Numbered from the stretch's first letter, positions 1-39,989 are shown. The stretch: DNA of 64,000 nucleotides from Deltaproteobacteria bacterium (GCA_021801125.1 JAJYYI010000017.1:33095-97094); one strand, 5' to 3'. Made by a program: numbers and translations. The notes: generated from the sequence alone by a model not told the origin.

Positions 1-249
1 CCCCAAACGAAGCATCAGGAAGACCGGCGCCGCGACGTAACCGAGGTAGTCGACTACGTTGTCCAGCAGGACACCGTCAAAATAGGCCAATCGTCGATCG
101 ACGCTCAGCGCGCGAGCGGCAAAACCGTCGGTCGAGTCGATCACGGTGGCCAGCGTGAGAGTCATAAACGCCGCACGCGCCCGATAATCAGCGGCGAATA
201 GCAGAGCGGCAAGCCCTAACACGGCGCCGAGAGCAGTGTAGAGATGCAC
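1..249 (-). CDS. CDP-alcohol phosphatidyltransferase family protein; 3' end (C-terminus) lies beyond the window edge. Probable GTG start near 249.
   Basis: Hand translation of the minus strand gives a TM helix (LYTALGAVLGLAALLFAA) followed by DGFAARALSVDRRLAYFDGVLLDNVVD, which fits the D-G-x2-A-R...G-x3-D-x3-D signature of CDP-OH phosphotransferases. The reading frame is open to position 1. It is missing from the ORF track because it has no stop inside the window. Confidence 0.55.
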   Translation of the reverse strand, partial: MHLYTALGAVLGLAALLFAADYRARAAFMTLTLATVIDSTDGFAARALSVDRRLAYFDGVLLDNVVDYLGYVAAPVFLMLRLG

Positions 250-332
250 GCCCCAGCTCGCTAGGCTGCTCCAGTCAATCGGGCCTTGCCGCCGGCAGCT
301 TTTCGCCGGCGCCGCCCCTTGACCTTCGCCGC

Positions 333-866
333 TTAACACCGGCCGCGAACGGAGCGGAAATATTCCTCCAGAGTTGAGACGAAAGGCCCGCAGTTGCGCC
401 GATCTTTCACGAATTTCGTTGCCTCCTCCAGCGAAAGCTTTTGGTGCCAATGGAGGAACGCGATCGCCACCGTCGGAGCGCGGTTGACGCCTGCGTTGCA
501 GTGGAGGTAAATGCGCTCCTTGGCCGCAGCGAGATCGGCTAGAACTTCCAGCGCCTCGCCCAGATGCAACACCACGTCGTCGCTGCTGCCATCGGCGATG
601 GGGGTGCGTACGAACCGGATGCCGTGTTCGCTGTATCCGTGTTGCAGGTCAACTATAGAGAGCCCGTTGACGACAAGGTCCCGGTCGTCTTGCAGGCTGT
701 GCACCGCGCTCACGCGCAACGCCTCTTTGAGCCAGCTGATATCACCTACCTGCGGATATTCGCCGATCAAAAGCTCCGGCAAAAGTTCGGTTACTGAAGG
801 ACGCCTGTCGCCGCGCACGAAACGGGGTTCCGAGTCAGGCCTAAGAGTCCACAAATTTTGCGTCAT
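333..866 (-). CDS. Dual-specificity / protein-tyrosine phosphatase (CX5R P-loop)
   Basis: HCNAGVNRAPT matches the HC(X)5R catalytic loop of DSP/PTP-fold phosphatases. It lies immediately upstream of, and co-directional with, the CDP-alcohol phosphatidyltransferase. Confidence 0.7.
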   Translation of the reverse strand: MTQNLWTLRPDSEPRFVRGDRRPSVTELLPELLIGEYPQVGDISWLKEALRVSAVHSLQDDRDLVVNGLSIVDLQHGYSEHGIRFVRTPIADGSSDDVVLHLGEALEVLADLAAAKERIYLHCNAGVNRAPTVAIAFLHWHQKLSLEEATKFVKDRRNCGPFVSTLEEYFRSVRGRC

Positions 867-1173
867 GAGCGTCTCCGCTCGCGCTCCTTGAAACTAAGCT
901 CGCGGCCAAGCACTTAGGTAAATACCGTCCCGCACGACGCGCAGATCCCGCGAGCAAAGCGCCCGAGGCGCCGCTCCGCCTAACAAGAGTACCAGTTTTG
1001 CCCGCAGCCGGCATCAAACCCACGCCACCCGGCTGAACAGCCGCGCCCACGGCCTCTTTCTGATCCCGTGCGCCCGAACCCGTCTTCTCTGAGCGAGAGT
1101 CAACTTCCGCTTCTCCCCGCGAAGGGCGTAATCCTTATTTCCCCAGGCGAAGGTCGACGCGTGACGAGTGATG

Positions 1174-4100
1174 CTACGACGAATCGCGCGCCGCGGCCGA
1201 CGCAGCCGGTTTCGTAGGCGCGTCATTGACGGATTCAGAATCGATTCCATCCGCGTTCGAGGCCACGGGTTCAGCGTCGGGCGCGGTGTGATTCGTCCCA
1301 CTCGATTCAATCCCGTCGCCATTGCCGGCCGCCACCACGGCTTCGACCCTGCTCGACGCGCGGAAGACGGCACGCGGCGCCGAAGAGCGCTGCGCCAGCC
1401 CCACAACTGCCTGACGCATCACCTCGGCCGCCTTGCGATAAACGCCGTACGACTCGCCATCGCTTGCCGCGCGAACGAGCGCCTCGTTGGTTATAACCGG
1501 ACCGATTCGCAATTCCACTGGGTAACGACGGGGTAGCAACTGCCCCTTGCCAAGAGCGTGATAAGTGCCCTGCACATATATCGGCAGCACATCACACCCG
1601 CTGCGCAGCGCAAGATATCCGGCTCCGCTCTTGAACTCCTGAATCGCGCCGTGCGGCGTGCGCGTACCCTCAGGAAACATCAGGACGCTCGCCCCACGAG
1701 CCAGCTTCTCCAGCGCCGCGTTCAGCGAATCGAGCTGCGCTCCCTCGCGGTCAAACGGAATGAGGGGACTGAAGTTAGCGGCGAGGAACCGTCGCGCGGA
1801 GCTGTTGAAAAAGTAATCCTTCGCCGCGAGCACTACCAGTTGCTCGCCAAGCTTGCCCAACGCGGAGCGAACCAAAACAAAGTCCAGATGGCTTGCGTGA
1901 TTCGCGATCACCAGCACGTTGCGGTTCGCGGGAATATTGCCCCGCCCCAGAACCCGCGGCTTAAGCCATCGGTCGACCGTGCTCTCAATCGCGCCTGCCA
2001 GGATGCTCTGCCCGACGCGGCGCAAGGCTTGCGGCAGGGCCGGCGTGTAGGGCTCGGCGAACGCGGCGTAAGAGGGAAGGCGCGGCCGGCTTGAGTCGCG
2101 AGCGATCAGCCCTTGAAGGTCGCCCGCCGTGCTGATCGCCGTCAGTTGATCCGCGGTTGGAGCCCATCCGCTATGCTGCGCGATTATCTCGGCCAACTCG
2201 GCGAGCGCTAGCGAATCAAGTCCGAGGTCCTCGAACAGACGCGAACCGCTGGAGATCTCGCGCGCGCCTCCGGCAACTTGCTCCAACGCCTCCGCCAGCC
2301 AGCTCGCCAGGTCGGACGTTCCGCCGGCCTCTGCGCCGGCGCTTTTTGCCACCATCGCGCGCAATGTCGAGGCCACTTCAGCGCGTTTAACTTTCCGTGT
2401 CCGTGTGCGCGGAAGCTCACCGCCCGTGAAGCGCAGAATATGCACCTGCTTGTACGGCGGCAGCGCGCGATTTACTTGGTCGAAATGCGCGCGAATCTTT
2501 TCTTCGACGGCGCGCTGGCTCTCGCCATGGGCGTAGGCCGGGACCACCAGCGCTGCGGCCTGCTCGCCCGAACCGACCTTGAGCGCCACGATCGCAAGCT
2601 CCTTGATCTGTGGCAAGCGTCCGTAGAACTCCTCGAGTTCGTCGATGTAGATATTGTTGCCGCCCGCGTCAACGATCACGTCCTTGCTGCGCCCGACGAT
2701 GTACAGCCGCCCGCCGTCGTCGAACCGCCCGAGGTCTCCCGTGTGCAGCCAACCATCCTTGAGCGCCTGCTCGGTGGCGCTTTCGTTGCGGAAGTAGCCT
2801 TTCATCACGTTGCCGCCGCGGACCAGGATCTCTCCGGTCTCCCCGCCTTCGACCGCCTCGAGCTTGACCTCCAGGCCCGACAGCGGTTTCCCGACCGAGC
2901 CCAGCCGCAAATCCTCGTCCGGACGGGCCACGCTCACCACGGGCGCCGCTTCCGTCAACCCGTAGCCTTCGAGCAGTCTGAGGCCAATGTCGTTGAAGAA
3001 CTCGGCGGTCTCGCCCGGCAGCGCAGCACCGCCGCTTACCGCCAGACGCAGGCGCCCGCCGAGGGCCTCGTGCAGCGGGCGAAAGATGAGATTTCCCAGA
3101 TCGAGCCTCAGGTCCCGCTCCAGCGAGTGATTGAGCGTCCGCAGGCGCTCAAACGCCCCCTTGAACACCGTCCCGCGCCGCTCAATCTGCTCGAGGATTC
3201 GGCGGTGGATGGCCTGCCATATCGCGGGCACGCCTATCAGGGCCGTCGGCTTGACATCCGCCAGCGTTCGGCCGAGCGTTGCGGCACTCACGTTGCGCGG
3301 GTACACGATGTGCGCGCCGCTGGCCAGCGGCAGCAACATGCCGCACGTGAATTCGAAACAATGATGCAGCGGCAGCAGGGAGAGCACCGTGTCGGTCGGA
3401 TCGAGTTCGAAGATTCGCGAGAGCATCAGCACTTCGGCCGTAAAGTTGCCGTGCGTGAGCATCGCGCCTTTGGCCGAGCCGGTGGTGCCCGAAGTGAACA
3501 CCACCGAAGCGAGCGTGTCCTTGCTCCATTCGACCTTCGCCGGCGTTTTGCCGTGCAAGACAAACGGCCGGCGCAAATCCTCGAACGCCATCTCAACCAG
3601 CGCCGTGCCGCACGCCTCAGCCATCGGGCCCAACCGCTGCCGAAAACTGGCTGAACACAGCGCGGCTGTCGGCGAGGCGACGCGGCAGATAGCGCGCAAC
3701 TCGTCCGTCGAAAGCATGGGGTCCAGCGGCACCGCCACCGCTCCCGCACCGATCACCGCGAAGAAGCCCAACACCCAATCAGGAGAGTTCTCTCCCGCCA
3801 GTAATACCCGATCGCCTGTTTGAACGCCGCGGCTGGAAAGCATCAAGCTCGCGCGGCGCGCCGCGTCTCGCAGCTCCCGGTAGCTGAGCGTCGAGTGATG
3901 GCCTGAAGAATGACGCCAGCTTAGCGCCGGCTTCGCGCCGTGGCGCTCGGCGCTTTCATCCAACAGGTCGATGAGATGCCTGAACCTGAGCGGCTTCGCC
4001 CGCACGCGCCCTCGCGTGTGCAAATCCAAGCGCGGAAAAATGTGGCGGCGCAACCCTGGGATGTGGATGTTAACCCAGTAGTCGTGCCAATCCATCTTGT

Positions 4101-5622
4101 CAGGATCGAAGCGATGGACCTCGGCGTCAGCCGGACTTAACCGCTTATATAAAGCGCGAATGTTGCGGCTGTGGAAAATATAGGAGAAGTCCTGGATGTA
4201 CGGGCGATAAATATCAATGAGCGACTGCCCCAGACGAATGCGATCACTGGTTTGCGCCGCCCATCGCTCCAAGCGCCTTACCGCCGGCGCATCGCGCCCC
4301 ATCAGCAGCTGTCCCGCGCGGGCGGTCTGCGCCAACGCCCTGGGCAGCCCCCAGATCGCCGCCTCGTAGGTTTTATGGGAAACGGCGATGGGCTCCAGGT
4401 GCTGTGTGAGCAACTTTCCGGCGGTCTCACCATGCTCGCGCTGATGGCGCCGGTTGGCCACGGCGGTAAGCTCGATCAAGCGCTCCATGCGGAACGGGTT
4501 GGAGTCCGAAGAGCCGAGCTGGTAAATCGGTTCGTGACGACCCAGCAGCAGCGCAGCCAGAACGGGAAACATGGCGTGCGCCACGAGGTCCACCGGAATG
4601 ACGTCCAATATCAGCTCGCGGCGCGCGGGATAAAAGCGGTATCCCTCGCCCGACAGGTAGGTGAGCGGCGCGCTGGTGTTGACCCCTTGGTTCCATCCAG
4701 GGAAGGGATCTCTTATCGCGCTCTCGATTACCGCCGGGCGCACCACCGTCACTTTGAGCGTGTCGCGCGCGGCCAATACCAACTGCTCGCCCAAACTCTT
4801 GCTGTAGCTGTACGTATTGGGCCATCCCCAGTAAAGCGCGCGGCTGCGCCCTTCGCGCTTGAGTTCCTCCTCGAGCTGTTGCTTGGGCAACAGTTCTGCG
4901 CCGTCGCGCGCTTCGTCAAGGGCGGCGCCGTTTTCATCCTCGGGTTCCCTTGCGGCGCTCGACTCGATGCGCGATATCACCGCCTGGGCTTCGCGAATTT
5001 CGCGCTTCAGGCTGAAACGGCGCGCGCCCGGCTGCGGGCACCAATCCACCGGGATGTCGTCCTCATGCCGGTGGCCGTCGGCCGCGCCGGCAACGTAACA
5101 GGTCGAAATATGGAGCATCGGCGCACGTATTTTGCGGCAAAAGTCGAGCACATTGCCCGCCCCCAGCGTGTTAATCGCCAACGCCTTGTTAAGCGGCGCG
5201 TCGAAGTTCACCAATCCCGCGCAGTTAACGACCGCGTCTATCTGACCGCGCGTGAAGCGCGTCTGAGAATCAGTGACAAGGCCAGGCTCCGTGATGTCGC
5301 CGCATACGACGGTCAGCTTCTCCCGTACCCACCGGTCGAACGAGTCTCCCATCTGCTCGCGCAACGGGGCAAACGCGGGCGAGGCGAGCACCTCGCGCTC
5401 CAGCCGCTTGGGCCCCGAGCGCTGATCGCCGCGAACCAGCAGATAGACCTGTTCGACCTCGGGATGCTCGCGAAGAAGCAGATATAGAAAGACCTTACCG
5501 AGAAAGCCGGTAGCCCCGGTAAGCATGATGCGCCGTCCGCGGAAGATCTTTTCCAGCGGTGGAAGGCGGTCTCGTTGAGTTTTTCGTTGACCGACGCGCA
5601 ACAAATTATTGGACATCCGCAA
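1174..5622 (-). CDS. Multidomain lipid-biosynthesis enzyme resembling ElbD. Domains: N-terminal NAD(P)-binding fatty-acyl reductase (approx nt 5535-4065), acyl-AMP/CoA ligase (approx nt 3960-2385), phosphopantetheine carrier (approx nt 2325-2115), C-terminal PlsC-type acyltransferase (approx nt 2025-1425).
   Basis: TGATGFLGK Rossmann motif with the male-sterility/NAD_binding_4 region. AMP-binding core (FTSGTTGSAKGAMLTHGN ... GYGLTE ... HTGDLG). PP-binding LGLDSLALAEL (DSL serine). AGPAT motifs NHASHLD and FPEGTR. The frame is a continuous 1482-aa ORF. Confidence 0.85.
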   Translation of the reverse strand: MRMSNNLLRVGQRKTQRDRLPPLEKIFRGRRIMLTGATGFLGKVFLYLLLREHPEVEQVYLLVRGDQRSGPKRLEREVLASPAFAPLREQMGDSFDRWVREKLTVVCGDITEPGLVTDSQTRFTRGQIDAVVNCAGLVNFDAPLNKALAINTLGAGNVLDFCRKIRAPMLHISTCYVAGAADGHRHEDDIPVDWCPQPGARRFSLKREIREAQAVISRIESSAAREPEDENGAALDEARDGAELLPKQQLEEELKREGRSRALYWGWPNTYSYSKSLGEQLVLAARDTLKVTVVRPAVIESAIRDPFPGWNQGVNTSAPLTYLSGEGYRFYPARRELILDVIPVDLVAHAMFPVLAALLLGRHEPIYQLGSSDSNPFRMERLIELTAVANRRHQREHGETAGKLLTQHLEPIAVSHKTYEAAIWGLPRALAQTARAGQLLMGRDAPAVRRLERWAAQTSDRIRLGQSLIDIYRPYIQDFSYIFHSRNIRALYKRLSPADAEVHRFDPDKMDWHDYWVNIHIPGLRRHIFPRLDLHTRGRVRAKPLRFRHLIDLLDESAERHGAKPALSWRHSSGHHSTLSYRELRDAARRASLMLSSRGVQTGDRVLLAGENSPDWVLGFFAVIGAGAVAVPLDPMLSTDELRAICRVASPTAALCSASFRQRLGPMAEACGTALVEMAFEDLRRPFVLHGKTPAKVEWSKDTLASVVFTSGTTGSAKGAMLTHGNFTAEVLMLSRIFELDPTDTVLSLLPLHHCFEFTCGMLLPLASGAHIVYPRNVSAATLGRTLADVKPTALIGVPAIWQAIHRRILEQIERRGTVFKGAFERLRTLNHSLERDLRLDLGNLIFRPLHEALGGRLRLAVSGGAALPGETAEFFNDIGLRLLEGYGLTEAAPVVSVARPDEDLRLGSVGKPLSGLEVKLEAVEGGETGEILVRGGNVMKGYFRNESATEQALKDGWLHTGDLGRFDDGGRLYIVGRSKDVIVDAGGNNIYIDELEEFYGRLPQIKELAIVALKVGSGEQAAALVVPAYAHGESQRAVEEKIRAHFDQVNRALPPYKQVHILRFTGGELPRTRTRKVKRAEVASTLRAMVAKSAGAEAGGTSDLASWLAEALEQVAGGAREISSGSRLFEDLGLDSLALAELAEIIAQHSGWAPTADQLTAISTAGDLQGLIARDSSRPRLPSYAAFAEPYTPALPQALRRVGQSILAGAIESTVDRWLKPRVLGRGNIPANRNVLVIANHASHLDFVLVRSALGKLGEQLVVLAAKDYFFNSSARRFLAANFSPLIPFDREGAQLDSLNAALEKLARGASVLMFPEGTRTPHGAIQEFKSGAGYLALRSGCDVLPIYVQGTYHALGKGQLLPRRYPVELRIGPVITNEALVRAASDGESYGVYRKAAEVMRQAVVGLAQRSSAPRAVFRASSRVEAVVAAGNGDGIESSGTNHTAPDAEPVASNADGIDSESVNDAPTKPAASAAARDSS

Positions 5623-7267
5623 CCACCAGCGGTGGCAGGTGCAGGTAGGTGATGGTCGCCGAGCGTCCGATGTCGCCGGTGGCCATCGCGATAGCCTCTT
5701 CGACCGTGTCCGCCGCTTCCCAGCCTAGCCTCGCGGCGACCTGAGGATCTTCGCAACCAGCCGCGATCACGCGCCCCAGATGCTTGCGGCCGGGCTCGCC
5801 CCAGTACCACATGTAAAACGGATGCACGCCGTGGTACGCGTGACCGTACCGATACATATGAATGTACGTAGGATTGGCCGCAAACTCAGCTTCAAAGCGC
5901 TTGGACAGCTCCTCGGAGTCCGTGGTCTCTGCCAGGCATCGATGAAAGAACTCGATGTAGCTCGGATGATGCTCCGGGTGAAATTCGTTGCGCAGCGGGT
6001 GACATATGATCATCGTTCCGCCCGGGCGGACCAGAGGTTTGTACCGGTACATGTTGAACAGGTAGCCAAGCCCGGTACACTGCACCAGCACCGGATTCAT
6101 TACCGAATTGACGTTGTAAGGACAGACATACGGGACGCCGACGAGCAGAACGTCGGACTGTCCGCTGACCGGCACTGCGTATTGCTGGAACACGCGGTCT
6201 AGAGTTTTGCGATGCACGGCCTCGGTTTCTCCGGCCCATACGCCGGTCAACTCGTACGGCGCGGAGTAATGGTGCAACAGTTCGCGGCGCGTCCGATTAG
6301 ACATGTTCGCCAGCGTCCAGTTGAAGGCGCGAAGCCGCATGCGGTCCCATTCGTTGAACTCGTCTTCGTTCTTCTGCAGGAAGTCGAAGAAGCCCGAGTA
6401 CATGCGATTGTTGATCGACGTCTCAACCGTGAAGATGTTGAGCTCGCGACTGACGACCTTTCCAAGCCTGTCGACCGTGCTGTGAAGCGCCGAGCGATTC
6501 GGATCCATGTAAGAATGACATCCGCGCAGCGTGGCCGGATTATGGTGGTAACGCAAACTCTGATACGGCGCGAGGCCTACCGCCACCGACTTGTGCCCGC
6601 CATCCATCGGCACCAATGTCAAATTGACGTAGATCACCAGGTCGGAGTCGGCGGCGCGCTTTGAGAGCCACACTTCCTCGCCGTGCTCGGTCTTGCCGAG
6701 CATCGCGAGGTCGCCCGGGTTCTCGCCGTCGAAATTGTATAAGCGGTCGGGCCAGAACTGGGCAAAGGCGCGCTCGCCCACGGCGCGGCGAATCTCCGCG
6801 GCGGTCATGCGGCGATGCAGCGAGGTCGCTATGATGATGTGCACGTCGTCGACGCCGTAGTCCGCCAGCGTCTGCAGCACGATGTTGAGCACGCGCTCAC
6901 GCGCGTCGGGCCGCTGCATCGGCGGCAGCGGCAAGCTGATATCGTCGACGGCGATCGTCACCCGCATGTTCGGGTTAAGCTGCGCGAACAGCGGGTCGGC
7001 GTTCTCGGGGTGAAGCAGCGCGTAACGGATCGCGACCTCGGGATCGGGCAGCCCGTCCATCGGCGGCGGCGGATAAACGACGCGCGTGCCAGGCGGCAGC
7101 TTTTCTTCGAGGAATTCGTCGCCGTAAGCGATCAGGCGAGGCTTGGAGCGGCGCGTAAGAGTCACCACGAGATCACTGCGCGCGCCGATCTCATGAAGTA
7201 GTTCGGCCCGTTTGAGTTCCCTGAGTTTCGCTTCCGGAGCTGCCATTCGTCTGGCCACCGCGTACAC
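5606..7267 (-). CDS. LarA-family protein (lactate-racemase-like, putative nickel-pincer-nucleotide-dependent 2-hydroxyacid racemase/epimerase homologue), 553 aa
   Basis: An ATSLHRR motif (AT[GS]xHR) is followed 75 residues later by GGHKS. A His-His pair sits 15-16 residues after that Lys (KSVAVGLAPYQSLRYHH). This matches the His108/Lys184/His200 spacing of L. plantarum LarA as I recall it. The gene overlaps the ElbD-like gene start by 17 nt, which suggests translational coupling. Confidence 0.6.
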   Translation of the reverse strand: MYAVARRMAAPEAKLRELKRAELLHEIGARSDLVVTLTRRSKPRLIAYGDEFLEEKLPPGTRVVYPPPPMDGLPDPEVAIRYALLHPENADPLFAQLNPNMRVTIAVDDISLPLPPMQRPDARERVLNIVLQTLADYGVDDVHIIIATSLHRRMTAAEIRRAVGERAFAQFWPDRLYNFDGENPGDLAMLGKTEHGEEVWLSKRAADSDLVIYVNLTLVPMDGGHKSVAVGLAPYQSLRYHHNPATLRGCHSYMDPNRSALHSTVDRLGKVVSRELNIFTVETSINNRMYSGFFDFLQKNEDEFNEWDRMRLRAFNWTLANMSNRTRRELLHHYSAPYELTGVWAGETEAVHRKTLDRVFQQYAVPVSGQSDVLLVGVPYVCPYNVNSVMNPVLVQCTGLGYLFNMYRYKPLVRPGGTMIICHPLRNEFHPEHHPSYIEFFHRCLAETTDSEELSKRFEAEFAANPTYIHMYRYGHAYHGVHPFYMWYWGEPGRKHLGRVIAAGCEDPQVAARLGWEAADTVEEAIAMATGDIGRSATITYLHLPPLVVADVQ

Positions 7268-7584
7268 CCGTCAACTTCGCGCATGCGCCGCGCGCGCATC
7301 CGCAACCTTGGCCCAACGACCTATTAGCGAAGGTAGACCGCGCTCGCCGCCAGGCGCCTTGAGGCGTTCCCGCCGCTGTCCCAATAGTGCGCCACTCGCC
7401 TGACGCACTCGCCGCGCCTGAACCGAGCGAGAACGCGCGCTACCGAGCCCGCAATGCGGGGCTCGACGTTATTAGCTTCCCGCGGCCAAAAGTCCATATT
7501 CAGGTTCGCTCGCTCCCCGCACCGCCTCAGGCAAAGCCGGTGGTCAGAACAAGCGGAGCAAACCGACGCGAACGGCCTTGCGCT

Positions 7585-8349
7585 TCATACTCCGACCAAG
7601 TGGCGCGCGAACGACGTCGCCCCGCGCAACCGGCCGTCGCCCGCAAACCGTATCACGGGCCAATGCCGGGAGTGGGCGAAAGCTTCAAGCGCGTCGTCCG
7701 GATTGACCGCGACCGGATGGCCAACCGCGCACAGAAACGGAACATCGTAATACGAGTCGGCGTAACCCCAACAAGCGCTCAGGTCCAACCCGCGGCGAGC
7801 CGCATAGTCAGCGCACCACGCCGCCTTCTCGCTTCCCGCCATCACGGGCTCTTGCAACGCCCCGGTGGCCACGCCTTGGCGAAATACCAACCGGTTGGCG
7901 GCAAAGTCGGTCACGCCAAGCCGTCGCGCCAAAGGAGCAACCATAAAGTCCGGCGAACCGGTTACGAGCACTGGTTCGAGCCCAACCTCGCGGTTGCGTT
8001 CCAACAAATCAAGGGCTTGCGGGTAAAGCCGGCTCGTCATGACGTAGTCGCAATACTCCTCGCCGACTATCGCCAGGCGGTCGCGCGAAACACCCTTGAA
8101 AGTCTCGAAAATTGCCCGGTTCAGCAAGGCCCGATCGCTTCTCTCAGCCACGTACAAAACCGGCAAACGCCGGACCAAGCGCGCGAGATAGCTCACACGC
8201 CGGTTCCATTCACGCAACTTGCTGAAAACGAAAATCCCCGCGTCGACGAGATTTAGCTCCGCCAGCGTGCCGTCAAGATCGTAGAAAGCCACTCGTGGAC
8301 GAGCGGAATTTTTCGCAGGCCGACTCATCGCGTAGAATAGAACTGACAC
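7585..8349 (-). CDS. HAD-superfamily hydrolase, subfamily IB (phosphoserine-phosphatase-like). Alternative ATG start at 8328.
   Basis: FYDLDGTL motif I (DxDGT), a conserved downstream Lys, and an Asp motif (GDGxxD-like ... GYADSYYD) are present. It is the first gene of the apparent operon HAD / LarA-like / ElbD-like. Confidence 0.6.
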   Translation of the reverse strand: MSVLFYAMSRPAKNSARPRVAFYDLDGTLAELNLVDAGIFVFSKLREWNRRVSYLARLVRRLPVLYVAERSDRALLNRAIFETFKGVSRDRLAIVGEEYCDYVMTSRLYPQALDLLERNREVGLEPVLVTGSPDFMVAPLARRLGVTDFAANRLVFRQGVATGALQEPVMAGSEKAAWCADYAARRGLDLSACWGYADSYYDVPFLCAVGHPVAVNPDDALEAFAHSRHWPVIRFAGDGRLRGATSFARHLVGV

Positions 8350-8508
8350 GTCAGTCTAGTGAGCCGCTGGGCCGCGGTCAACGCCGAAACGGAGTGGTCA
8401 ACCGCGATGCGACGCGTGCCGCTTTCGCCTACGGTTGCGGCGTTTTCGGCGCTGGGCGATCGACGGCCGCAAATGCGTCCCACCAACGGCATTTCGCAAC
8501 AATTGTGA

Positions 8509-9135
8509 TCAGTGCGGCCGGTTATCGTGGTTGGTCTCGCCCGCGCGCAGCAACTCCGCAGTGGCGACGCCATTTAGTCCGAAGTTCAAGATTTCTTCGG
8601 CCAGATGGCTAATTTCGCGCTGCGGTTGCCGAAGGGTTTGCCCCGCCACCTCCTTGATGCCGCCGAGGATGCAGGCCGCAACCACTCGCGTGTCGCAGGA
8701 CCTAACCAATTTCATCTCCAACCCGAGATCGAGCGAGCGCTGGATCTGCTGGGTTATCTGACCGTAGAACTCGCGTATTCTTCCTTCGAACTCACGGTCG
8801 AGGTCGAGCGAATGGTTAAGCAGGATGTCGGTAAGCTCCCTCTCGGTGAGGACAAAGTCGAGTATTCGCAGGAGGTTGTTGCGCAGTTGCTCGGCAGCGG
8901 AAGGCTCGCCGGGGGCCATCCTGATGCGGTAGATGCGCTTCTCGATCTCCAACAACGCCTCGTTGAGCAGTTCCTCGAAAAGCTCTTTCTTGTTCTGGAA
9001 ATAAAGGTAAAACGTGCCGCGCGCGATCTTCGCTTGGGCCACTATGTCCGAGATGTTGGTGCGATGGTAACCCTTGCGCGCGAATAGTTTTTTGGCGTGG
9101 CGAAGAACTTGTGCGCGTCTGACCTGCCGTTCCAT
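8509..9135 (-). CDS. TetR/AcrR-family transcriptional regulator
   Basis: N-terminal HTH: AKKLFARKGYHRTNISDIVAQAKIARGTFYLYFQNKKELF is typical of TetR_N. Confidence 0.8.
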   Translation of the reverse strand: MERQVRRAQVLRHAKKLFARKGYHRTNISDIVAQAKIARGTFYLYFQNKKELFEELLNEALLEIEKRIYRIRMAPGEPSAAEQLRNNLLRILDFVLTERELTDILLNHSLDLDREFEGRIREFYGQITQQIQRSLDLGLEMKLVRSCDTRVVAACILGGIKEVAGQTLRQPQREISHLAEEILNFGLNGVATAELLRAGETNHDNRPH

Positions 9136-9328
9136 TGCTCAGGAGTATGCCGGTTCGAGTATAGCGCCTAAATACAAGCGTGTCATCGCAAGCGAGCGAA
9201 CCGACCGCCAGCGACATTTTGGCGGGTCAAGTTTCAGTGGGCAAGGGCATCGGCACCAAGCGGCTGATCAATCGAGCAGCGCGCGAGCAGAGCGCGCTGC
9301 CGAGCAGAACGCGCTGCCTCGACGAAGC

Positions 9329-10213
9329 TTATTCCATTTGCACCTCGGCGACTCCGTCTCGGATAACCCCCTGGCCCTGTGGGTTGGCGGTCTCGTAGAA
9401 GTAGGTGCGCCGCGAACGATCCCGCGCGCCGGGCCAGAGTGTTGTGGTCAGCGTCTGGCCCGGAAAAACCGGGCGCGCAAAACGCGCGTACAGGCGCTTA
9501 AGTCGCAATGGGTCTCTGCCGCACACTGCGTCAATCACCGCCTTTGACGCAAACGCCATCGTGCACAGTCCATGCACGATCACGCCGGGCAGTCCCGCCG
9601 CTTTGGCGGATTCCTGGCTGAGATGAATCGGATTGTTGTCGCCGGACGCTTTCGCGTAGCGCACCGCTTGATCAAAATCGAGTTGTTGGACGACCGTCGC
9701 CGCCTGTTCAGCGCGCAGCGCCTCGACAGCGAGCGCTTTTCGCGCTTCGCGCTTCTCGCGCGAAACCGCGGAGCGAGCGCGCGCCTTGTTCCGCGCGCGG
9801 ATGAACGCCGTGAAAACTATTCGCTGCACCTCGACGCGATCCTGATTAGAAGCGCGCAACTCAACGGCAAGCGTCTCGCCGTGAGCCATGACCTCAATCC
9901 GCATTATCCTGGCCACAGTGGAAATCACGTCATCCGGCCGGATCGGCGCCAGGTACTCCATGTCCTGTTCGCTGTGTAGAAGGCGGACGAGATCTACGCC
10001 GAGTTCGGGATCGCTGGCTACTTGGAGCACCGCCGGATAAGTAGCCACGGCGCCGAAAAGCGGCGGGGCACTAATCCCGCCCGCGCGCGAGACGTCCAGA
10101 AAAGCCGGGTTATCTTCGTTGCAGGCCGAGGCATATTCCGTAATCGCACCTTCGCTTACCCGGAATGTAGTCGTCGGATAAACCTTGCCGATACAGTTTT
10201 GGTTAAGCCCCAT
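9329..10213 (-). CDS. Double hot-dog MaoC-like (R)-specific enoyl-CoA hydratase/dehydratase. The start is taken at the internal ATG at 10213, which has a GGAG Shine-Dalgarno; the ORF track extends it to 10357.
   Basis: The C-terminal half carries the MaoC signature (GDNNPIHLSQESAKAAGLPGVIVHG). The N-terminal half is a second hot-dog fold. Confidence 0.7.
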   Translation of the reverse strand: MGLNQNCIGKVYPTTTFRVSEGAITEYASACNEDNPAFLDVSRAGGISAPPLFGAVATYPAVLQVASDPELGVDLVRLLHSEQDMEYLAPIRPDDVISTVARIMRIEVMAHGETLAVELRASNQDRVEVQRIVFTAFIRARNKARARSAVSREKREARKALAVEALRAEQAATVVQQLDFDQAVRYAKASGDNNPIHLSQESAKAAGLPGVIVHGLCTMAFASKAVIDAVCGRDPLRLKRLYARFARPVFPGQTLTTTLWPGARDRSRRTYFYETANPQGQGVIRDGVAEVQME

Positions 10214-10473
10214 TGCGTGCGTTTCGCTCCTTACACCGCACCGTAAAAAGTCGAGCCGACCGGCAAAGGGAATCAAGCGAGCGTATGCGAAGCCCTTGCC
10301 GAGATTCTGAACAATCCCGCTTACCAGCCCCGCCGAACAACGATACAAGCGGGGCAATGCTCATCGCGACCCAACCACTCTGGCATCCCGACTATGTTCG
10401 GCTCTTTAATCGTTCGGCTTCATGCAACACACAGCTAAAGGCATCTTTCATTCGAGCCTTGCACGCACTGCGC

Positions 10474-11625
10474 TCAAGCCACTTCCCGTCCCCCGATGAA
10501 AACAGCCTTTAGGTTGAGATCTCGATCGAGCACGAGCAGGTCCGCGCGCGCGCCCACGGCGATCGTTCCTTGTTGGCTAAGCCGCATAAGGCGCGCCGGA
10601 TTTTCCGCCGCCATGGCGACCGCCTGAGACAGACTTGCGCCGGTGACTTGAATCATCAGGCGCACCGCGTCGAGCAACGAGGTGAAGCTGCCAGCCAGGA
10701 CGCCGCTGTCGCACCGCGCGGCGCCTTCTCGCGCGCCCATCCCGCGCATTCTTTCGAACCCGCCCATCGCATCGGCGCCCGACGCCGTAAGCCGCTCTTT
10801 GCCGCTATCGCTCGGCGTCGCCACGCGGTCGCTGGTCAGTATCAGCCCTTGGTGGCCACGCGCGCGAAAGGCCAGCCGAAGCATCGCCGGATGCACGTGC
10901 GCGCCGTCCGCAATCAGTGCGGCAAGAGCCGCCGACGGCAACAGACCCGCCACGGCGACGCCGGGCGCGCGATGGTGAATAGGGCGCATCGCGTTGAACA
11001 GATGGGTGAACATGCGCGCACCCGCCGAAACGGCCTCCATCGCCTCTTCCAGCGTGGCGTCTGAATGGCCGATCGCGCTCACCACACCGCGCGCTGCAAG
11101 CCTGTTGATCGCCTCCCGCGCACCCGCCAGCTCGGCGGCCAGCGTCACCATGCGCAACTGTTCCATTGCAAGCACACGCTCAAGCGCCTCGCCTCGAGGC
11201 TCCAGATTAAAGCGCGGATGGATCCCCAATCGGGCGGGTGAAATAAAGGGTCCTTCCAGGTGCAAGCCGACAATCGCCGCCTGTGCCGCCTCGTGCTCGA
11301 GCATAACCGCGGCTTGGCACACCGCGTCATGCACCCGCTCCAGGCGGTCAAGCGGCGCCGTAATCGCCGTCGGCAAAAAGGCCGTGACGCCCTCAGCCGC
11401 CAAGGAGCGCGCGATTGCGGCGATTTCGCCGGGCGAAGCCGCCATCACGTCGTGAGAACCCACGCCGTTCACTTGCAGGTCGATTAGGCCTGGGACAATC
11501 TGATCATCGCCTGCTGGCAGCGCCGGCTCGACCGCTTCGATCCGTTCCGAGAAAGTCACCCTGCCCGAGAGACTCAGACCGTCGGCACAGACAAGCTGGC
11601 CACGCAACGTCCTAGTCTCCAGCAT
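10474..11625 (-). CDS. nagA: N-acetylglucosamine-6-phosphate deacetylase
   Basis: Amidohydrolase fold with GLIDLQVNG and HLEGPFISP motifs characteristic of NagA. Confidence 0.8.
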   Translation of the reverse strand: MLETRTLRGQLVCADGLSLSGRVTFSERIEAVEPALPAGDDQIVPGLIDLQVNGVGSHDVMAASPGEIAAIARSLAAEGVTAFLPTAITAPLDRLERVHDAVCQAAVMLEHEAAQAAIVGLHLEGPFISPARLGIHPRFNLEPRGEALERVLAMEQLRMVTLAAELAGAREAINRLAARGVVSAIGHSDATLEEAMEAVSAGARMFTHLFNAMRPIHHRAPGVAVAGLLPSAALAALIADGAHVHPAMLRLAFRARGHQGLILTSDRVATPSDSGKERLTASGADAMGGFERMRGMGAREGAARCDSGVLAGSFTSLLDAVRLMIQVTGASLSQAVAMAAENPARLMRLSQQGTIAVGARADLLVLDRDLNLKAVFIGGREVA

Positions 11626-11638
11626 CGCTGTTCAAAGC

Positions 11639-11893
11639 TTAGTTGGCACCGAAGCGCTCCGCCAACAGGCGGGAAAAGCGCGGCGTGTATATCAGGTCGA
11701 AAACGGCCTCTTTGTCCGGAAACATCGCCAGCACCGCGCGCTTCAGCGCCAGCACATGCGCCCAAGCCTCGTCCAGCGTAATGCGGGGGTCTTGCGCGAT
11801 CACCGCAGTCGTCAGGTCAACCAGCAGATGCATCCGGCGGATCATGCGTTCTTCCAAAGCTAATTCGGCGTCGCGACCATGGTCGCCCATTGC
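11639..11893 (-). CDS. Hypothetical small protein (~84 aa). The longer track ORF has an Arg/Pro-rich, probably non-coding N-terminus.
   Basis: Only the C-terminal 84 codons read like a protein (MGDHGRDAELALEERMIRRMHLL...). No recognisable family. Confidence 0.3.
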   Translation of the reverse strand, partial: AMGDHGRDAELALEERMIRRMHLLVDLTTAVIAQDPRITLDEAWAHVLALKRAVLAMFPDKEAVFDLIYTPRFSRLLAERFGAN

Positions 11894-12122
11894 ACTTTTA
11901 CCTCGTGGTTGCGATTGTTGATGCGAGACAACTATAGCATCGCGGACGCCATGTTTTTTAAAGGGCTGCGCGCACGGCGCCCCGAAACAGAAGAAGCGCA
12001 AACGAAAGAATTCCGCTGCGACTTCCGAAAGGAAGTTCGCTGCTGGCCGTCGCCGACGGCGCAACGAAGGCGCAGCCTGACCGCTTCGACGCGAACGCTC
12101 CGGCAAGAGGTTCATAGCCGAG

Positions 12123-13031
12123 ATGATCCCGCAGCAACAGCCACGCCTTAAGAGCAGCTTTATTTACCTCGCGAACGCGGTGCGCGACCTTACCAGCAAT
12201 TGGGAAACCTTCGCGTTGACCCTTACACCGCTGGCTTTGGTGGCGGCGCTCTGCTTGATGCCGGACGCGCTCAATCTGCAGCACGAGTTGATGCGTTTCT
12301 TTTCGTCAGGCGTGCATAACGTGGGCGTGCGCGAGGTTCAACTGATTAAGGAAGGCCCGCAAGCGAATTTGCCGTTCTCGCCGTGGCAAACGCGGCTTTT
12401 GCACCTAATCATTCTTCTTCTCACGCTGGGCGTGAACCTGGTCGTCTTGTGCGCATTAAGCCGGATTCGTGCGGGGGTTCGCGAAAATAACCCATTAGGC
12501 GAGGCGCGGGCCGTTTACCGGCGAGCCTGGAAGTTAATAGGTCCCTTCTCGTGGGTTTTTCTATTGCAAGTGTTGACTGTCATCGTTGGGCTTGTTCTGC
12601 TCGTGATACCCGGGGCGTTGGCCTATATCTGGCTCTACTTCGCTCAGTACGCCGTGGTGATGGACAATCAGCGCAGCTGGCCGGCGCTCTTATTCAGCCG
12701 CGAGCTTATGCGTGGGCGTTTCTTCGCGGTTGCGATGCGCATCGTGGTTTTTCTCGCCGTATGGTCCGGATTCAATTCATGGACTGGCGGCGCATTTGTA
12801 CTGGTAAGCTGGACGCTCGGCATCATCGGCGCAGTGACCGGCTTTCTGTGGGCAGGCATCTTCGCGGCCGACCTGTTGGCGACCTGCGTCGGCTACGCGA
12901 CGATCGCATTTTTCTTTGCCGCGGGCGCGCGCTTGTACGAAGACCTAAACCAGCTTCGAAGGGCGCGCCAAGAGCTTGCACCAGCGCCGTCGCTGGCGCC
13001 AACTGAAGCGTTAGGCGCCCGCCCCTCTTAG
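12123..13031 (+). CDS. Polytopic integral membrane protein of unknown function
   Basis: At least six hydrophobic helices (e.g. LTLTPLALVAALCLMP, LLHLIILLLTLGVNLVVLCAL, VFLLQVLTVIVGLVLLVIPGALAYIWLYF). No diagnostic motif. Confidence 0.5.
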   Translation: MIPQQQPRLKSSFIYLANAVRDLTSNWETFALTLTPLALVAALCLMPDALNLQHELMRFFSSGVHNVGVREVQLIKEGPQANLPFSPWQTRLLHLIILLLTLGVNLVVLCALSRIRAGVRENNPLGEARAVYRRAWKLIGPFSWVFLLQVLTVIVGLVLLVIPGALAYIWLYFAQYAVVMDNQRSWPALLFSRELMRGRFFAVAMRIVVFLAVWSGFNSWTGGAFVLVSWTLGIIGAVTGFLWAGIFAADLLATCVGYATIAFFFAAGARLYEDLNQLRRARQELAPAPSLAPTEALGARPS

Positions 13032-13426
13032 CCATAGCTTCGGGCCGATAGCCGTCGTTTCCGCCGCCAGCGTCGAGCGGGCCCGAGCGCAATTACCAGT
13101 GTTCAAGCGCTAACTATAGCCTATTTGAAGCCGCAGGTATGCTACAGCGCCTCCGCTCGGGGCGGCCCCAGGCACGCCAAGGATTTGCATATTGATTTCG
13201 AAGAGCTTAATTGATGTGATTTTGCTTCTAGAAACCTTTTTAGCGCTAAAATCCCACTGTCCTTTCAGCCTTCCGCTCTGCCCAGCTAAGGGGCGCTGGT
13301 ATTGTCCGGCCATGCTATGCCATAATGGAGGTGCTGCTTCTATCTCAGCGGGCGCAAGAGAGGGGCGGATTCACCCCCAAAGCTCCCGGCTAACCCAGCG
13401 CGTGCGATCTTATGGCAAGGTGCGGT

Positions 13427-13918
13427 ATGACCCCCAGCTTCAAAAAGGGTGAGAAGGTTGTCTACCCGGCCCACGGCGTGGGTGTGATCGAAGGCGTTCA
13501 AACCAGAACCATCTCGGGCACCGAACGGACGTACTATTTGCTCAGGATCTTGGACAACCACATGACCATAATGGTTCCGACCGAAAACGTCGGAGCGGTC
13601 GGGCTGCGCCGGGTAATCGGCAAGGACATGGTTACCAAGATCTATCGTATCTTGCGGGACCGCAAGGTCCAGGCGGACGGTCAGACCTGGAATCGGCGGT
13701 ATCGGGAATACACGGAAAAAATCAAAACCGGCTCACCCCTCGAGATCGCCCAGGTGCTGCGCGACCTGTTGGTGCTCAAGGCAGACAAAGACCTGTCTTT
13801 CGGAGAGCGCAAGATTCTGGACACAGCGCGCAACCTGCTAGTCAAAGAGCTTTCCATCGCGCAAGACCATCCGGAAGAAAAGATCATAGAAGAACTCAAC
13901 GTTCTTTTCGCGAACTAG
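13427..13918 (+). CDS. cdnL: CarD/CdnL-family RNA-polymerase-binding transcription factor
   Basis: N-terminal CarD_CdnL_TRCF domain (FKKGEKVVYPAHGVGVIEGV ...). Length is ~160 aa, as for CdnL. Confidence 0.85.
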   Translation: MTPSFKKGEKVVYPAHGVGVIEGVQTRTISGTERTYYLLRILDNHMTIMVPTENVGAVGLRRVIGKDMVTKIYRILRDRKVQADGQTWNRRYREYTEKIKTGSPLEIAQVLRDLLVLKADKDLSFGERKILDTARNLLVKELSIAQDHPEEKIIEELNVLFAN

Positions 13919-14097
13919 GGCAGTGCACGCCCGCGTCCGCCATTCTATGACCCCAGGCGCCGACCAGCGGCAAGCATGCTCTAGCGCTCGCTCGCTTTCC
14001 GCACGATCCTGTAGCCCCCGCGTGGGTCGCGAGCGGACGTTCCTTCGACCGACGCGCGCGCATGCCACCCCGAAGGTTGCCGTCCTGGCCTGATTTC

Positions 14098-14816: not shown

Positions 14817-15641
14817 TCACGACGCGAGCGGCGATGCGAGCCCTTCGTTGAGCGAGCCCGACCTGAAGCCCTTTAGGTCGAGCGCCACAAAGCGAAACCC
14901 GATTCGGCGAAATTCCCGGAAGACGAGGTCCGCGAGTTCCGGCTCGATTATCCTCCCCATCTCATCGCGTTCAAGCTCAAGGCGGGCAACGTCGTCGTGG
15001 TAGCGTACGCGGGCCACCTTGAAGCCCAGGCACCGCAAAAGCCGCTCGCCCTCTTCAACCTTTGCAAGCGCTTCGGCCGTAATCTTGGTGCCGTAGGGAA
15101 AACGGGAGGATAGACACGGCGAAGCCGGCCTGTCCCACGTCGGAAGCGCCAGCGAGCGCGAGAGCTCGCGAATCTCCGCTTTCCTCAAACCCGCCTCGAC
15201 CAGCGGGTGGCGCACGCGGCGTTGCTCGGCGGCCCTGATCCCAGGCCGGTAGTCCCCAAGGTCATCAAGGTTGAGGCCGTCCAAGATATGCTCGACGCCA
15301 AGCTGGCGCGCTCTCTCCTCGCAAATCGTGTAAAGGTTGCTCTTACATAGATAGCATCGGTTGGTCGGGTTCGCGGCGTAACCGGGTATGACCAGCTCGT
15401 TAGACTCAACCAGCATATGGCGCGCTCCGATCAGCGCCACCAGCGCGCGAGCGGACTCCAGGTCCTCCCGCGGCATCGTCGGCGAGGTCGTCGTCAGCGC
15501 CAGGACGTTGTCGCCCAGGACTTGATGGGTCACCTTGAGCAGGAAGGAGGAATCGACGCCGCCCGAAAACGCGACGATCGCAGATTTCATCGGCTCAAGC
15601 AGACTGCGCAAACGGTTCAGTTTCTCGACAAGCTCGCTCAT
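14817..15641 (-). CDS. larE: LarE-family ATP-dependent sulfur insertase (PP-loop ATP pyrophosphatase, TIGR00268-like), probably the multi-Cys (Fe-S) type. Start at the ATG with a GGAGAGG Shine-Dalgarno.
   Basis: SGGVDSS PP-loop. PASPCLSSRFPYG matches the LarE catalytic-Cys region. An additional CYLCKSNLYTIC cysteine cluster is present. Confidence 0.7.
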   Translation of the reverse strand: MSELVEKLNRLRSLLEPMKSAIVAFSGGVDSSFLLKVTHQVLGDNVLALTTTSPTMPREDLESARALVALIGARHMLVESNELVIPGYAANPTNRCYLCKSNLYTICEERARQLGVEHILDGLNLDDLGDYRPGIRAAEQRRVRHPLVEAGLRKAEIRELSRSLALPTWDRPASPCLSSRFPYGTKITAEALAKVEEGERLLRCLGFKVARVRYHDDVARLELERDEMGRIIEPELADLVFREFRRIGFRFVALDLKGFRSGSLNEGLASPLAS

Positions 15642-15785
15642 AGCAGGACCTCTCCGGTCCAGGCTTGACACATCCGTCAACACTTTCGCAAGCCCTCGCC
15701 TCGCGTGCCAAAGGCACAGAGCGACGCGCTAGGAAGGAACCGGACCCGACGGGCCGCACGCGAAGCAGGGCCACTTGCGCGGGCA

Positions 15786-38906: not shown

Positions 38907-39989
38907 CTATTGGACTACATCCGAGTCGTTGGCCGGTATGCACAGCGCGCAGGGAAGGTCGCCGAACAGCTCCCTTCGCGCCTGATCACATGACCTAGCG
39001 TCGCTGTATATACCCCATGAGACCGAGCGCGCGAGCTTGTTTCGCTTCAAGCAGGTTATGCTCAGTTGGGCCTTGTTCCACTGCTCACCCATGAGCAGCA
39101 GCCACATGTCCAGAGGATTGCGGCCTCCCCACATCGGGTCCGTGCTGGAAACGCAGGCCAGTCCGCCTTCGCTCGCCTCATCGGCGTGGGGATCAAGCGC
39201 CGTCTCCGGCTTCTGACCGCTAAATTGATGCCTGACGCGTCGGCAATCGGCCGCCCGCTGGTAGACGCCGAGAATCATCGGGCTCGGCTCGCCTGCCCGC
39301 ACCCGGCCGGAAGCGCCGTCGACTCCGCTCCTCATTAACACCCAGACTTGCCGCGTCGGTGTGGATGCCGCGGCCGGAGCGCTTCGCGCAATCTGCTGCT
39401 CCCATTGCGCGGACTGGCTGCGATCCGCGGTCGGCAGCATCGTATAGGCCGTGGCGGCGTTCTTGGCCTCTTGCAGGTGCCCGGTCTGAATCAGCCCGGT
39501 GATCATCTGCCCGTACTCGCTTTTGAGGCCGACGTCGACCTGGCTGCGCACTTTCTCGCTCGCCTTGACGCAATTCTGCTGCACCTGCTCGGGAGAGACG
39601 ACGACGCCGTTGCCGGGCTGGCCCGCGGACGTGGGTTTGGAAACGCGGTAGCTCGCCAAGCAGTAGGCGTCCATAATCCGCTGATGCTGGCTCGGTGGGA
39701 TCTCGCGCGCGAACAGCGAATCGTTCACCACGGATCGAAGGTCAGCGAAGGCCAGTTGCGGGTCGCTATTCGACTCCACCAGCAGCACGCCGTTTGCCGC
39801 CTTGGCCCTGAGTTGGCAGGCCTCGTCGCACCATGGAAGCCCGCCCATCACGGCGACGTTTTTATAGTGTCCTTCGTCCAGTTCCGTATAGCTTCGCTTG
39901 TACTGGCGAGTTTGTTCCACGCACGAGGCGAGAAACAGACTCGCAATCGGCCAAAGCAAAAAGACCAGCCATGCCCTTGGTAATCTCAT
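38907..39989 (-). CDS. Putative lipoprotein of unknown function
   Basis: Signal peptide plus lipobox (FLASC). Soluble Cys-containing domain with no recognisable family. Confidence 0.45.
   Translation of the reverse strand: MRLPRAWLVFLLWPIASLFLASCVEQTRQYKRSYTELDEGHYKNVAVMGGLPWCDEACQLRAKAANGVLLVESNSDPQLAFADLRSVVNDSLFAREIPPSQHQRIMDAYCLASYRVSKPTSAGQPGNGVVVSPEQVQQNCVKASEKVRSQVDVGLKSEYGQMITGLIQTGHLQEAKNAATAYTMLPTADRSQSAQWEQQIARSAPAAASTPTRQVWVLMRSGVDGASGRVRAGEPSPMILGVYQRAADCRRVRHQFSGQKPETALDPHADEASEGGLACVSSTDPMWGGRNPLDMWLLLMGEQWNKAQLSITCLKRNKLARSVSWGIYSDARSCDQARRELFGDLPCALCIPANDSDVVQ

Follow-up and report, generated by a model that had tools for sequence, protein, structure and literature searches.

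Can seven consecutive genes on one strand of a soil-bacterial contig be parts of a single route to an unusual phospholipid? The question arises at one end of a 64,000-nucleotide stretch deposited as Deltaproteobacteria bacterium (GCA_021801125.1, JAJYYI010000017.1:33095-97094; hereafter the window). Here, a sequence-only reading had seen seven minus-strand genes as one coherent set, encoding a MaoC-type dehydratase, a TetR regulator, a HAD phosphatase, a LarA homologue, an ElbD-like enzyme, a dual-specificity phosphatase (DSP) and a CDP-alcohol phosphatidyltransferase. All seven genes are indeed present, in the places and with the domains that it described. From gene order and the sequence of ElbD, the HAD, LarA and ElbD genes are the elbB-elbC-elbD (elbBCD) core of the myxobacterial ether-lipid cluster.

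The elbBCD core in Binatia

The Myxococcus elb operon consists of elbA (NAD epimerase), elbB (HAD phosphohydrolase), elbC (unknown function), elbD and elbE (NAD epimerase), and insertions in elbD and elbE lower both alkyl and vinyl ether lipids (PMC9131029). A Corallococcus locus (L045) encodes, in order, an ElbA-like protein, a HAD protein, a LarA homologue, ElbD and ElbE, the LarA homologue thus standing at the elbC position. In the window, as in Corallococcus, elbD is immediately preceded, on its own strand, by the HAD gene and the LarA homologue. The window's ElbD shares 38-39% identity with the Corallococcus ElbD-position genes over 93-94% of its length, and combines in one polypeptide a fatty-acyl reductase (NAD_binding_4, residues 34-351, and Sterile, 466-529), an acyl-AMP ligase (AMP-binding, 554-944), an acyl carrier protein (PP-binding, 1108-1169) and a PlsC-type acyltransferase (Acyltransferase, 1223-1350). 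Its translation keeps GATGFLG, the reductase motif YSYSK, TSGTTGSAKG, the DSL carrier serine and the acyltransferase blocks NHASHLD and FPEGTR. On the strength of the gene order and of the ElbD sequence, the three genes are elbB, elbC and elbD. The likeness to the reference cluster of Myxococcus xanthus (elbA-elbE; Lorenzen et al. 2014; MIBiG BGC0000871; PMC9131029) lies in this same order and in the order of the ElbD domains. The ElbB-position phosphatase carries the HAD motif I (FYDLDGT); its start is ambiguous, and may be GTG at 8349, ATG at 8328 or GTG at 8292.

We scanned a genome collection with the LarA homologue as query and obtained 80 related loci. The 19 closest (75-94% identity in the LarA homologue) come from Binataceae or 'Deltaproteobacteria' metagenome-assembled genomes (MAGs) of the class Binatia, and the window itself is a Binatia (Binataceae-like) metagenome contig. 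The other 61 (49-59% identity) come mainly from Myxococcota, Bryobacterales/Terriglobia (Acidobacteriota) and Planctomycetota, with one Gemmatimonadales MAG. The window's own contig (JGI Ga0438459_0000007, 459,601 bp; L081) could be followed for a further 10 kb or so past window position 1.

All 19 Binatia loci have a HAD gene upstream of the LarA homologue, as have 46 of the 61 others (three more have it downstream); this pair is the most stable part of the elb cluster. Full-length ElbD follows in every Binatia locus with room for it (17/17); among the others it is full in 21 and split in eight. The remaining genes are more restricted. TetR is found upstream in 18/19 Binatia loci (the contig of the 19th is cut) and in 0/61 others; the DSP and transferase pair occurs in 13 of 17 Binatia loci and again in none of the others. 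Homologues of ElbE show the opposite distribution (0/19 against 36/61). Many of the Acidobacteriota loci (Bryobacterales; among them L074, L076, L078, L048 and L080) have HAD, LarA homologue and ElbE directly adjacent; several of them (L062, L065, L066 and L080) carry a piece of ElbD a few kb further upstream, and in others the flank contains none.

The arrangement is thus beyond chance for six of the seven genes, and the predicted conservation of gene order holds for these six within Binatia and for three (HAD, LarA and ElbD) across phyla. The exception is MaoC. Neither it nor its amidohydrolase neighbour has a homologue in any of the 80 related loci, including the one whose LarA homologue is 94% identical (L001). 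Because it is absent from every related locus, MaoC is only a neighbour, a bystander rather than the member of the set it had been taken for. At the place corresponding to MaoC, upstream of TetR, L001 has a DNA-methyltransferase region (5990-7926). Of the coherent lipid-related set originally proposed, the HAD/LarA/ElbD trio survives, conserved as elbBCD; MaoC and, as described below, the proposed head-group logic and atypical stereochemistry do not.

Elb-like clusters have already been reported outside the myxobacteria, in Acidobacteriota, Poribacteria and 'over 150 organisms' (10.64898/2026.06.23.733905), and in sponge symbionts (Poribacteria, Acidobacteriota) some of the cluster families contain no elb homologues other than those of elbD and elbB (10.64898/2026.06.23.733905). 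The window differs from the Myxococcus cluster by the addition of a TetR gene and a conserved palindrome, and by an operon encoding DSP, the transferase and a third protein (X589), which stands in the place of elbE. No TetR operator is described in the sponge-symbiont preprint (10.64898/2026.06.23.733905).

ElbC as a LarA homologue

The protein at the elbC position passes the equivalog cut-off of NF052592 (LarAH14/15/16) over its full length, contains the Lar_N domain (PF09861) and probably starts at the ATG at 7246. Its best alignment is to 9q2u and 9q3j (E 1e-27), LarA-like enzymes with a single histidine whose structures were solved recently. LarA itself requires two catalytic histidines, His108 and His174, for racemisation. 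H151 of the window protein (in ATSLHRR) is the equivalent of His108, and K226 (in GGHK) and H242, 16 residues later, are those of Lys184 and His200 at the same spacing. At the position of His174, or of the Asn that may substitute for it, the alignment has a gap, and the equivalent of Lys298 is also missing. Across 79 aligned family members, D108/D109, H151, K226 and H242 are invariant, and 92 residues in all are invariant or nearly so, including many C-terminal His, Trp and Tyr.

This is the pattern of LarAH14/15/16, which keep D72, H108, K184 and H200 and lack H174 and K298 (PMC7583248, NF052592). The lack of a His174 equivalent was noted for groups 14 and 15 (Desguin et al. 2020, PMC7583248), and LarA-family proteins without it are probably unable to invert a stereocentre (PMC7583248, PMC12611868). 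The suggestion of a stereochemically atypical lipid had rested on the LarA homologue acting as a racemase; since the second catalytic histidine is missing, racemisation is unsupported. For ElbC, a one-sided, cofactor-dependent hydride step appears to be the better inference.

The gene context reported for groups 14-16 comprises a 1-acyl-glycerol-3-phosphate acyltransferase, a HAD-type phosphatase, a thioester reductase, an acyl-CoA synthetase and an NDP-sugar-epimerase (PMC7583248 supplement). The first four are shared with the window, and we read the whole list as the elb cluster, not named as such in that paper. A gene for LarE, the sulfur transferase that helps to make the nickel-pincer cofactor, lies 7.5 kb from the LarA homologue, supporting the presence of a cofactor-using LarA homologue in this genome; LarE was not found near the cluster in the other related loci.

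Candidate operator, second operon and gene layout

A 14-bp palindrome (family consensus ACTGACATGTCAGT) occurs once per locus in the TetR-HAD spacer of all 19 Binatia loci. Thirteen copies are exact and six have one mismatch; the sequence flanking them has diverged. The window's copy reads ACTGACGTGTCAGT. The palindrome is preceded by TAGA, so that a -10-like TAGACT overlaps it at the elbB promoter, and this -10 element belongs to the block conserved across the Binatia loci. In the window, TTGACC stands 17 nt upstream of TAGACT. Outside Binatia, 989 kb of related loci contain only one match with at most one mismatch (L075), and no second copy with up to two mismatches was found upstream of the TetR or DSP gene. 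We consider the palindrome a probable TetR operator, at which the regulator most likely represses elbBCD. Among named models, the regulator comes nearest to a Bacillus-type FadR, with 63.5 bits where the cut-off is 200; because this score is so far below the cut-off, an acyl-CoA-type ligand is only a guess.

Two further loci carry variants of the palindrome. In L075, a Myxococcales MAG, ACTGACACGTCAGT (808-821), one mismatch from the Binatia palindrome, lies just upstream of the HAD (elbB) gene, and the 800 bp present upstream of it contain no TetR open reading frame (ORF). In L001, the promoter/operator block is present in the TetR-HAD spacer a second time, in degenerate form (GACTAGACTCACGTGTCAAT, 8760-8905).

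The transferase runs off the window at position 1 with its reading frame open, as had been noted. Continued on the same contig, it is completed as a 262-residue protein (P0121, L081 10480-11268) that is followed by X589, a hypothetical protein of 589 residues (L081 11268-13037) whose start overlaps the transferase stop. The transferase motif, DSTDGFAAR-ALSVDRRLAYFD-GVLLDNVVD, has the 12-residue spacing of the phosphatidylcholine synthase (Pcs) motif DX2DGX2ARX12GX3DX3D, a modified CDP-alcohol motif (PMC3972451). The protein can be aligned over its whole length with the Pcs of S. meliloti, Legionella and Pseudomonas; identity is 30-34%, and 24 columns, KT.D.YF.GFP..WN among them, are invariant in all. 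Five NCBIfam Pcs models are its best matches, all full-length (127-171 bits, E 1e-36 to 3e-50), while the PssA model reaches only E 5e-7. JGI annotates it as a phosphatidylcholine synthase, and the NCBI name goes no further than family membership. It is best assigned to the Pcs family rather than to the synthases of phosphatidylinositol phosphate (PIP) or phosphatidylglycerol phosphate (PGP). No phosphorylated intermediate occurs in the reaction known for Pcs, and for this reason the proposal that a PIP or PGP synthase acts first and its product is then dephosphorylated loses its basis. The enzyme shares with S. meliloti Pcs the motif and a length of about 240-260 residues, besides the invariant columns; it differs in being coupled to DSP and X589, whereas known pcs genes have unrelated neighbours.

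The DSP retains an invariant D92 (in the TPIAD loop) besides its P-loop; JGI calls a shorter product of 161 residues, starting at 818. Its best sequence matches in the PDB are the glucan phosphatases LSF2 and SEX4. An AlphaFold2 model (pLDDT 89) gave LSF2, SEX4 and laforin as the first Foldseek matches, with PTPMT1 ranking ninth and the MAP-kinase phosphatases lower still, which points to a non-protein substrate. With LSF2/SEX4, laforin and PTPMT1 it shares the DSP fold, and its CX5R loop resembles HCSAGLGRAP of LSF2. In contrast to these, it has no carbohydrate-binding module and belongs to a bacterial family that is apparently restricted to Binataceae: of its roughly 200 homologues, the few with a taxon name are all Binataceae. 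We rejected an identification as PTPMT1 itself, as no PTPMT1 is found among the sequence matches and the structural match has only 18% identity.

X589 follows the transferase in all 13 Binatia loci with the DSP-transferase pair, and its named homologues are likewise all Binataceae. It has no Pfam or NCBIfam family and no sequence match in the PDB. Its predicted fold combines a domain like N-formylglutamate amidohydrolase/PghP with an AttH/CrtC-hydratase-like (lipid-binding) barrel, and H32, D50, H118 and E221 are invariant. This DSP-Pcs-X589 operon is Binatia-specific, and convergent genes for ParA/Mrp, a DksA-type protein and RimO abut its end. The ElbD-DSP spacer, which measures close to the 300 bp noted earlier, is not conserved, ranging from about 150 bp to 2.9 kb in other Binatia loci, sometimes with inserted genes. 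It probably holds a separate promoter for the second operon.

Five Binatia loci have a gene like secreted Zn-dependent phospholipase C or S1-P1 nuclease after ElbD (L007 10708-11658; L012 15995-16876; L015 8912-9781; L016 16091-16972; L019 16035-16883). The assignment is from Pfam for three of them, and from the N-terminal motif and length for L012 and L015. In L007, genes for a class-I methyltransferase and an SDR also lie between ElbD and DSP. In the family scan, these inserted genes gave only generic matches, with no sign of a choline or methylation theme.

The features of the run are collected in Table 1.

Table 1. Features of the window's minus-strand gene run and of the nearby LarE gene
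Feature	Position	Strand	Basis
MaoC/double hot-dog dehydratase	9329-10357	-	PF13452 + PF01575
TetR-family regulator, 208 aa	8509-9135	-	PF00440, E 1.3e-16
HAD-IB phosphatase, ElbB position	7585-8349	-	TIGR01490, 111.8 bits vs cut-off 98.3
LarA homologue, ElbC position	5606-7267	-	NF052592 LarAH14/15/16, 819.8 bits vs cut-off 740
ElbD homologue, 1480-1482 aa	1174-5622	-	NAD_binding_4/Sterile + AMP-binding + PP-binding + Acyltransferase
ElbD-DSP spacer, 307 bp	867-1173		
Dual-specificity-phosphatase-fold enzyme (DSP), 177 aa	333-866	-	PF00782, 61 bits; P-loop HCNAGVNR
Pcs-family CDP-alcohol phosphatidyltransferase, N-terminal 113 codons	1-339	-	reading frame; off window at position 1
LarE	14817-15683	-	TIGR00268, 324.5 bits vs cut-off 150
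Candidate TetR operator, 14-bp palindrome ACTGACGTGTCAGT	8342-8355		
Promoter-like site TTGACC-17-TAGACT, directly upstream of HAD gene	8353-8381	-	consensus match only
Promoter-like site ATGACA-17-TATACT, upstream of TetR	9158-9186	-	10/12 consensus positions

In the direction of transcription MaoC precedes TetR, not the reverse, and an amidohydrolase and a hypothetical gene extend the same-strand run upstream of MaoC. Tight coupling is limited to two pairs: LarA and ElbD, which overlap by 11-17 nt, and DSP and the transferase, whose GTG start (339-337) overlaps the DSP stop TAA (335-333). The other spacers are longer, at 193 bp (MaoC-TetR), 159-216 bp (TetR-HAD) and 317-338 bp (HAD-LarA). 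The close spacing claimed from HAD through LarA to ElbD therefore applies to its second junction and not to its first. The HAD-LarA spacer is unconserved in an alignment with L001 and L002, and we propose no hidden element in it. Long plus-strand ORFs opposite the genes (e.g. 7387-8256 and 2278-3654) were rejected as antisense shadows typical of high-GC DNA; none is called by JGI. An Rfam scan of positions 1-14000 found no credible RNA element (its sole match, E 0.68, is far below the gathering score), and a terminator scan was uninformative, with 16 found against 12.5 expected.

Elsewhere in the window, 29590-31581 (minus strand) encodes a 663-residue protein with a thaumatin-family domain (E 2e-26), unusual in a bacterium, and 36165-38741 (plus strand) an 858-residue fusion of zinc-ribbon, Ser/Thr kinase, adenylate/guanylate cyclase and SPOR domains. 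Between 45046 and 47599, a stretch that includes a 453-residue ORF with no NCBIfam match, third-position GC is low (0.45-0.51, against about 0.7-0.8 elsewhere); this may be recently acquired DNA. Four ORFs of 255-360 residues with typical codon bias (27088-27879, 28693-29460, 33239-34174 and 38907-39989) have no Pfam or NCBIfam match.

One pathway or two neighbours

The explanation that we regard as probable is that of a TetR-controlled elbBCD unit, the Binatia version of the myxobacterial elb cluster, lying beside a separate DSP-Pcs-X589 operon and an unrelated MaoC gene. To judge from its partly characterised homologue in Myxococcus, ElbD would activate a fatty acid with its ligase domain and load it onto its own carrier; the reductase domain at the N-terminus would then reduce the thioester to the level of an aldehyde or alcohol, and the C-terminal PlsC-type domain would acylate a glycerol-phosphate backbone. 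ElbC, with a nickel-pincer nucleotide (NPN) and one catalytic histidine, would most likely perform a one-sided hydride transfer, a hidden redox step, on a hydroxylated intermediate. ElbB would take the phosphate off an intermediate, possibly a product of ElbD. Together, the three enzymes would yield 1-O-alkyl glycerolipids. The TetR protein most likely sits on the palindrome, over the -10 element and the start of the elbB promoter, and would repress until a lipid-type ligand, perhaps an acyl-CoA, is present. The Pcs-family enzyme would most likely join CDP-diradylglycerol and choline to form phosphatidylcholine. It might also add a choline head group to the ether lipid; such an acceptor is speculative, and the pairing of elbBCD with Pcs hints at an ether phosphatidylcholine, with weak support for a functional link.

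A number of points weigh against this explanation. One is the absence of elbE, which is the main departure from the reference elb system. Myxococcus elb includes elbA and elbE; neither occurs in the window, its extended contig or any Binatia locus, and tblastn with Corallococcus ElbE gave no match in any of these (19 Binatia loci searched). With elbE absent from the Binatia loci, and with less ether lipid made in Myxococcus when it is inactivated, the Binatia pathway may take a different course or reach completion elsewhere. For ElbD, only the ligase and carrier activities have been demonstrated in vitro (PMC9131029). For ElbC, the equivalent of Arg75, which contacts the NPN in LarA, is not kept, and no LarB or LarC was seen among the proteins of the 64-kb window, in a scan that covered all but a few ORFs below 170 residues. 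A Frankia LarAH14 was inactive on all substrates tested, seven hydroxy acids (PMC7583248), and since this is so, use of the cofactor by this group should be seen as unproven. The transferase is below all NCBIfam Pcs equivalog cut-offs (300-440 bits). The last points concern the second operon, which has no copy of the operator, is absent from 4 of 17 Binatia loci and in some has genes inserted before DSP, and whose downstream neighbours ParA/Mrp, DksA and RimO are as syntenic in Binatia as it is itself.

These last points bear on the strongest alternative, a possible one though we do not favour it, in which the two units are independent neighbours placed side by side only by the general conservation of gene order in Binatia. 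ElbBCD would then make ether-linked or fatty-alcohol-derived lipids (e.g. neutral alkyl-acylglycerols such as Myxococcus TG-1), and DSP-Pcs-X589 would make housekeeping phosphatidylcholine or another membrane lipid. Apart from the equal synteny of the housekeeping genes and the missing operator copy, the second operon seems to be served by a promoter region of its own; four loci have other genes between the two units, and the 61 non-Binatia elb loci have no DSP or Pcs homologue. With the housekeeping genes equally syntenic and with insertions between the units, adjacency alone is no proof that DSP-Pcs-X589 acts on the ElbD product. The units are, however, directly adjacent on the same strand in 13 of 17 loci, and both are lipid-related. 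Elb-like clusters of sponge symbionts likewise adjoin genes for CDP-alcohol phosphatidyltransferases, with a phosphatase in one clade, and ether lipids with phosphocholine head groups have been reported from Acidobacteriota subdivision 4 (10.64898/2026.06.23.733905). The window differs from the sponge symbionts in coming from soil Binatia, in the specifically Pcs-type transferase and in the DSP fold of its phosphatase.

A bolder extension of our preferred explanation, which we consider doubtful, would have hydride shuttling by the nickel-pincer cofactor of ElbC serve as the redox step of ether-bond formation in the aerobic bacterial ElbD pathway, acting on a glycerolipid intermediate and proceeding in Binatia without ElbE and feeding an ether choline (or related) phospholipid made by DSP-Pcs-X589. 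If true, lipid synthesis would gain its first nickel-pincer enzyme, and the Binatia of soils would be a source of ether lipids that has gone unrecognised.

It is unlikely, in our view, that, as in part of the original reading, the second operon installs an unusual non-choline head group, the transferase using a phosphorylated alcohol, DSP dephosphorylating the product (as PTPMT1 does with phosphatidylglycerol phosphate) and X589 trimming the head group. Such a scheme would fit the constant company and translational coupling of DSP and transferase, the closeness of the DSP model to phosphatases with non-protein substrates, PTPMT1 included, and the amidohydrolase-like fold and lipid-binding barrel of X589, as well as the sub-threshold scores of the transferase. 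As a control for these scores, we used S. meliloti Pcs, which scores 437 bits on the model of its own lineage and fails on the other four with 134-240 bits. Because a true Pcs scores likewise on foreign models, the transferase's scores fit a Pcs of an unmodelled lineage. The Pcs-specific X12 spacing, the C-terminal block KTxDxYFxGFPxxWN and the end-to-end alignment with characterised Pcs also speak against the scheme, as do the models for PIP synthase, PgsA and PssA, which score far lower or not at all.

A last reading joins the seven genes, and so also MaoC, in a single operon whose product would be an ether phospholipid of inverted stereochemistry, the racemisation of a glycerol or hydroxy-acid centre falling to the LarA homologue. 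This reading agrees with the common strand of the genes and with the LarA members characterised to date being racemases or epimerases (PMC7583248, PMC11770544), yet is very improbable and largely refuted by synteny, given a MaoC found in no related locus, promoter-like sites and a candidate operator that interrupt the gene string, a homologue missing the second catalytic histidine and the Lys298 equivalent (for which the family's authors doubt inversion), and no racemase activity from LarAH14 (PMC7583248).

Returning to the TetR-controlled elbBCD unit, the locus is a recognisable member of the known elb system in a class where this system has not been discussed, and not a new pathway. It has a lineage-specific regulator and candidate operator, lacks elbE and lies beside a Pcs-type operon. 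The link between ElbC and LarAH14-16 holds for elb clusters in general rather than for this window in particular. It would connect the ElbC 'of unknown function' of the ether-lipid field with the orphan LarAH14/15/16 of the nickel-pincer field, giving both a concrete hypothesis. In the library that we searched, we found no cross-citation between these two literatures, and no paper in which 'lactate racemase' is joined by 'ether lipid' or 'elbC'. Ether lipids of bacteria serve as environmental biomarkers; which organisms make them, and by what enzymes, is known only in part. With the elb core present in an abundant and uncultured class of soil bacteria, the Binatia, these lipids have one more candidate source.

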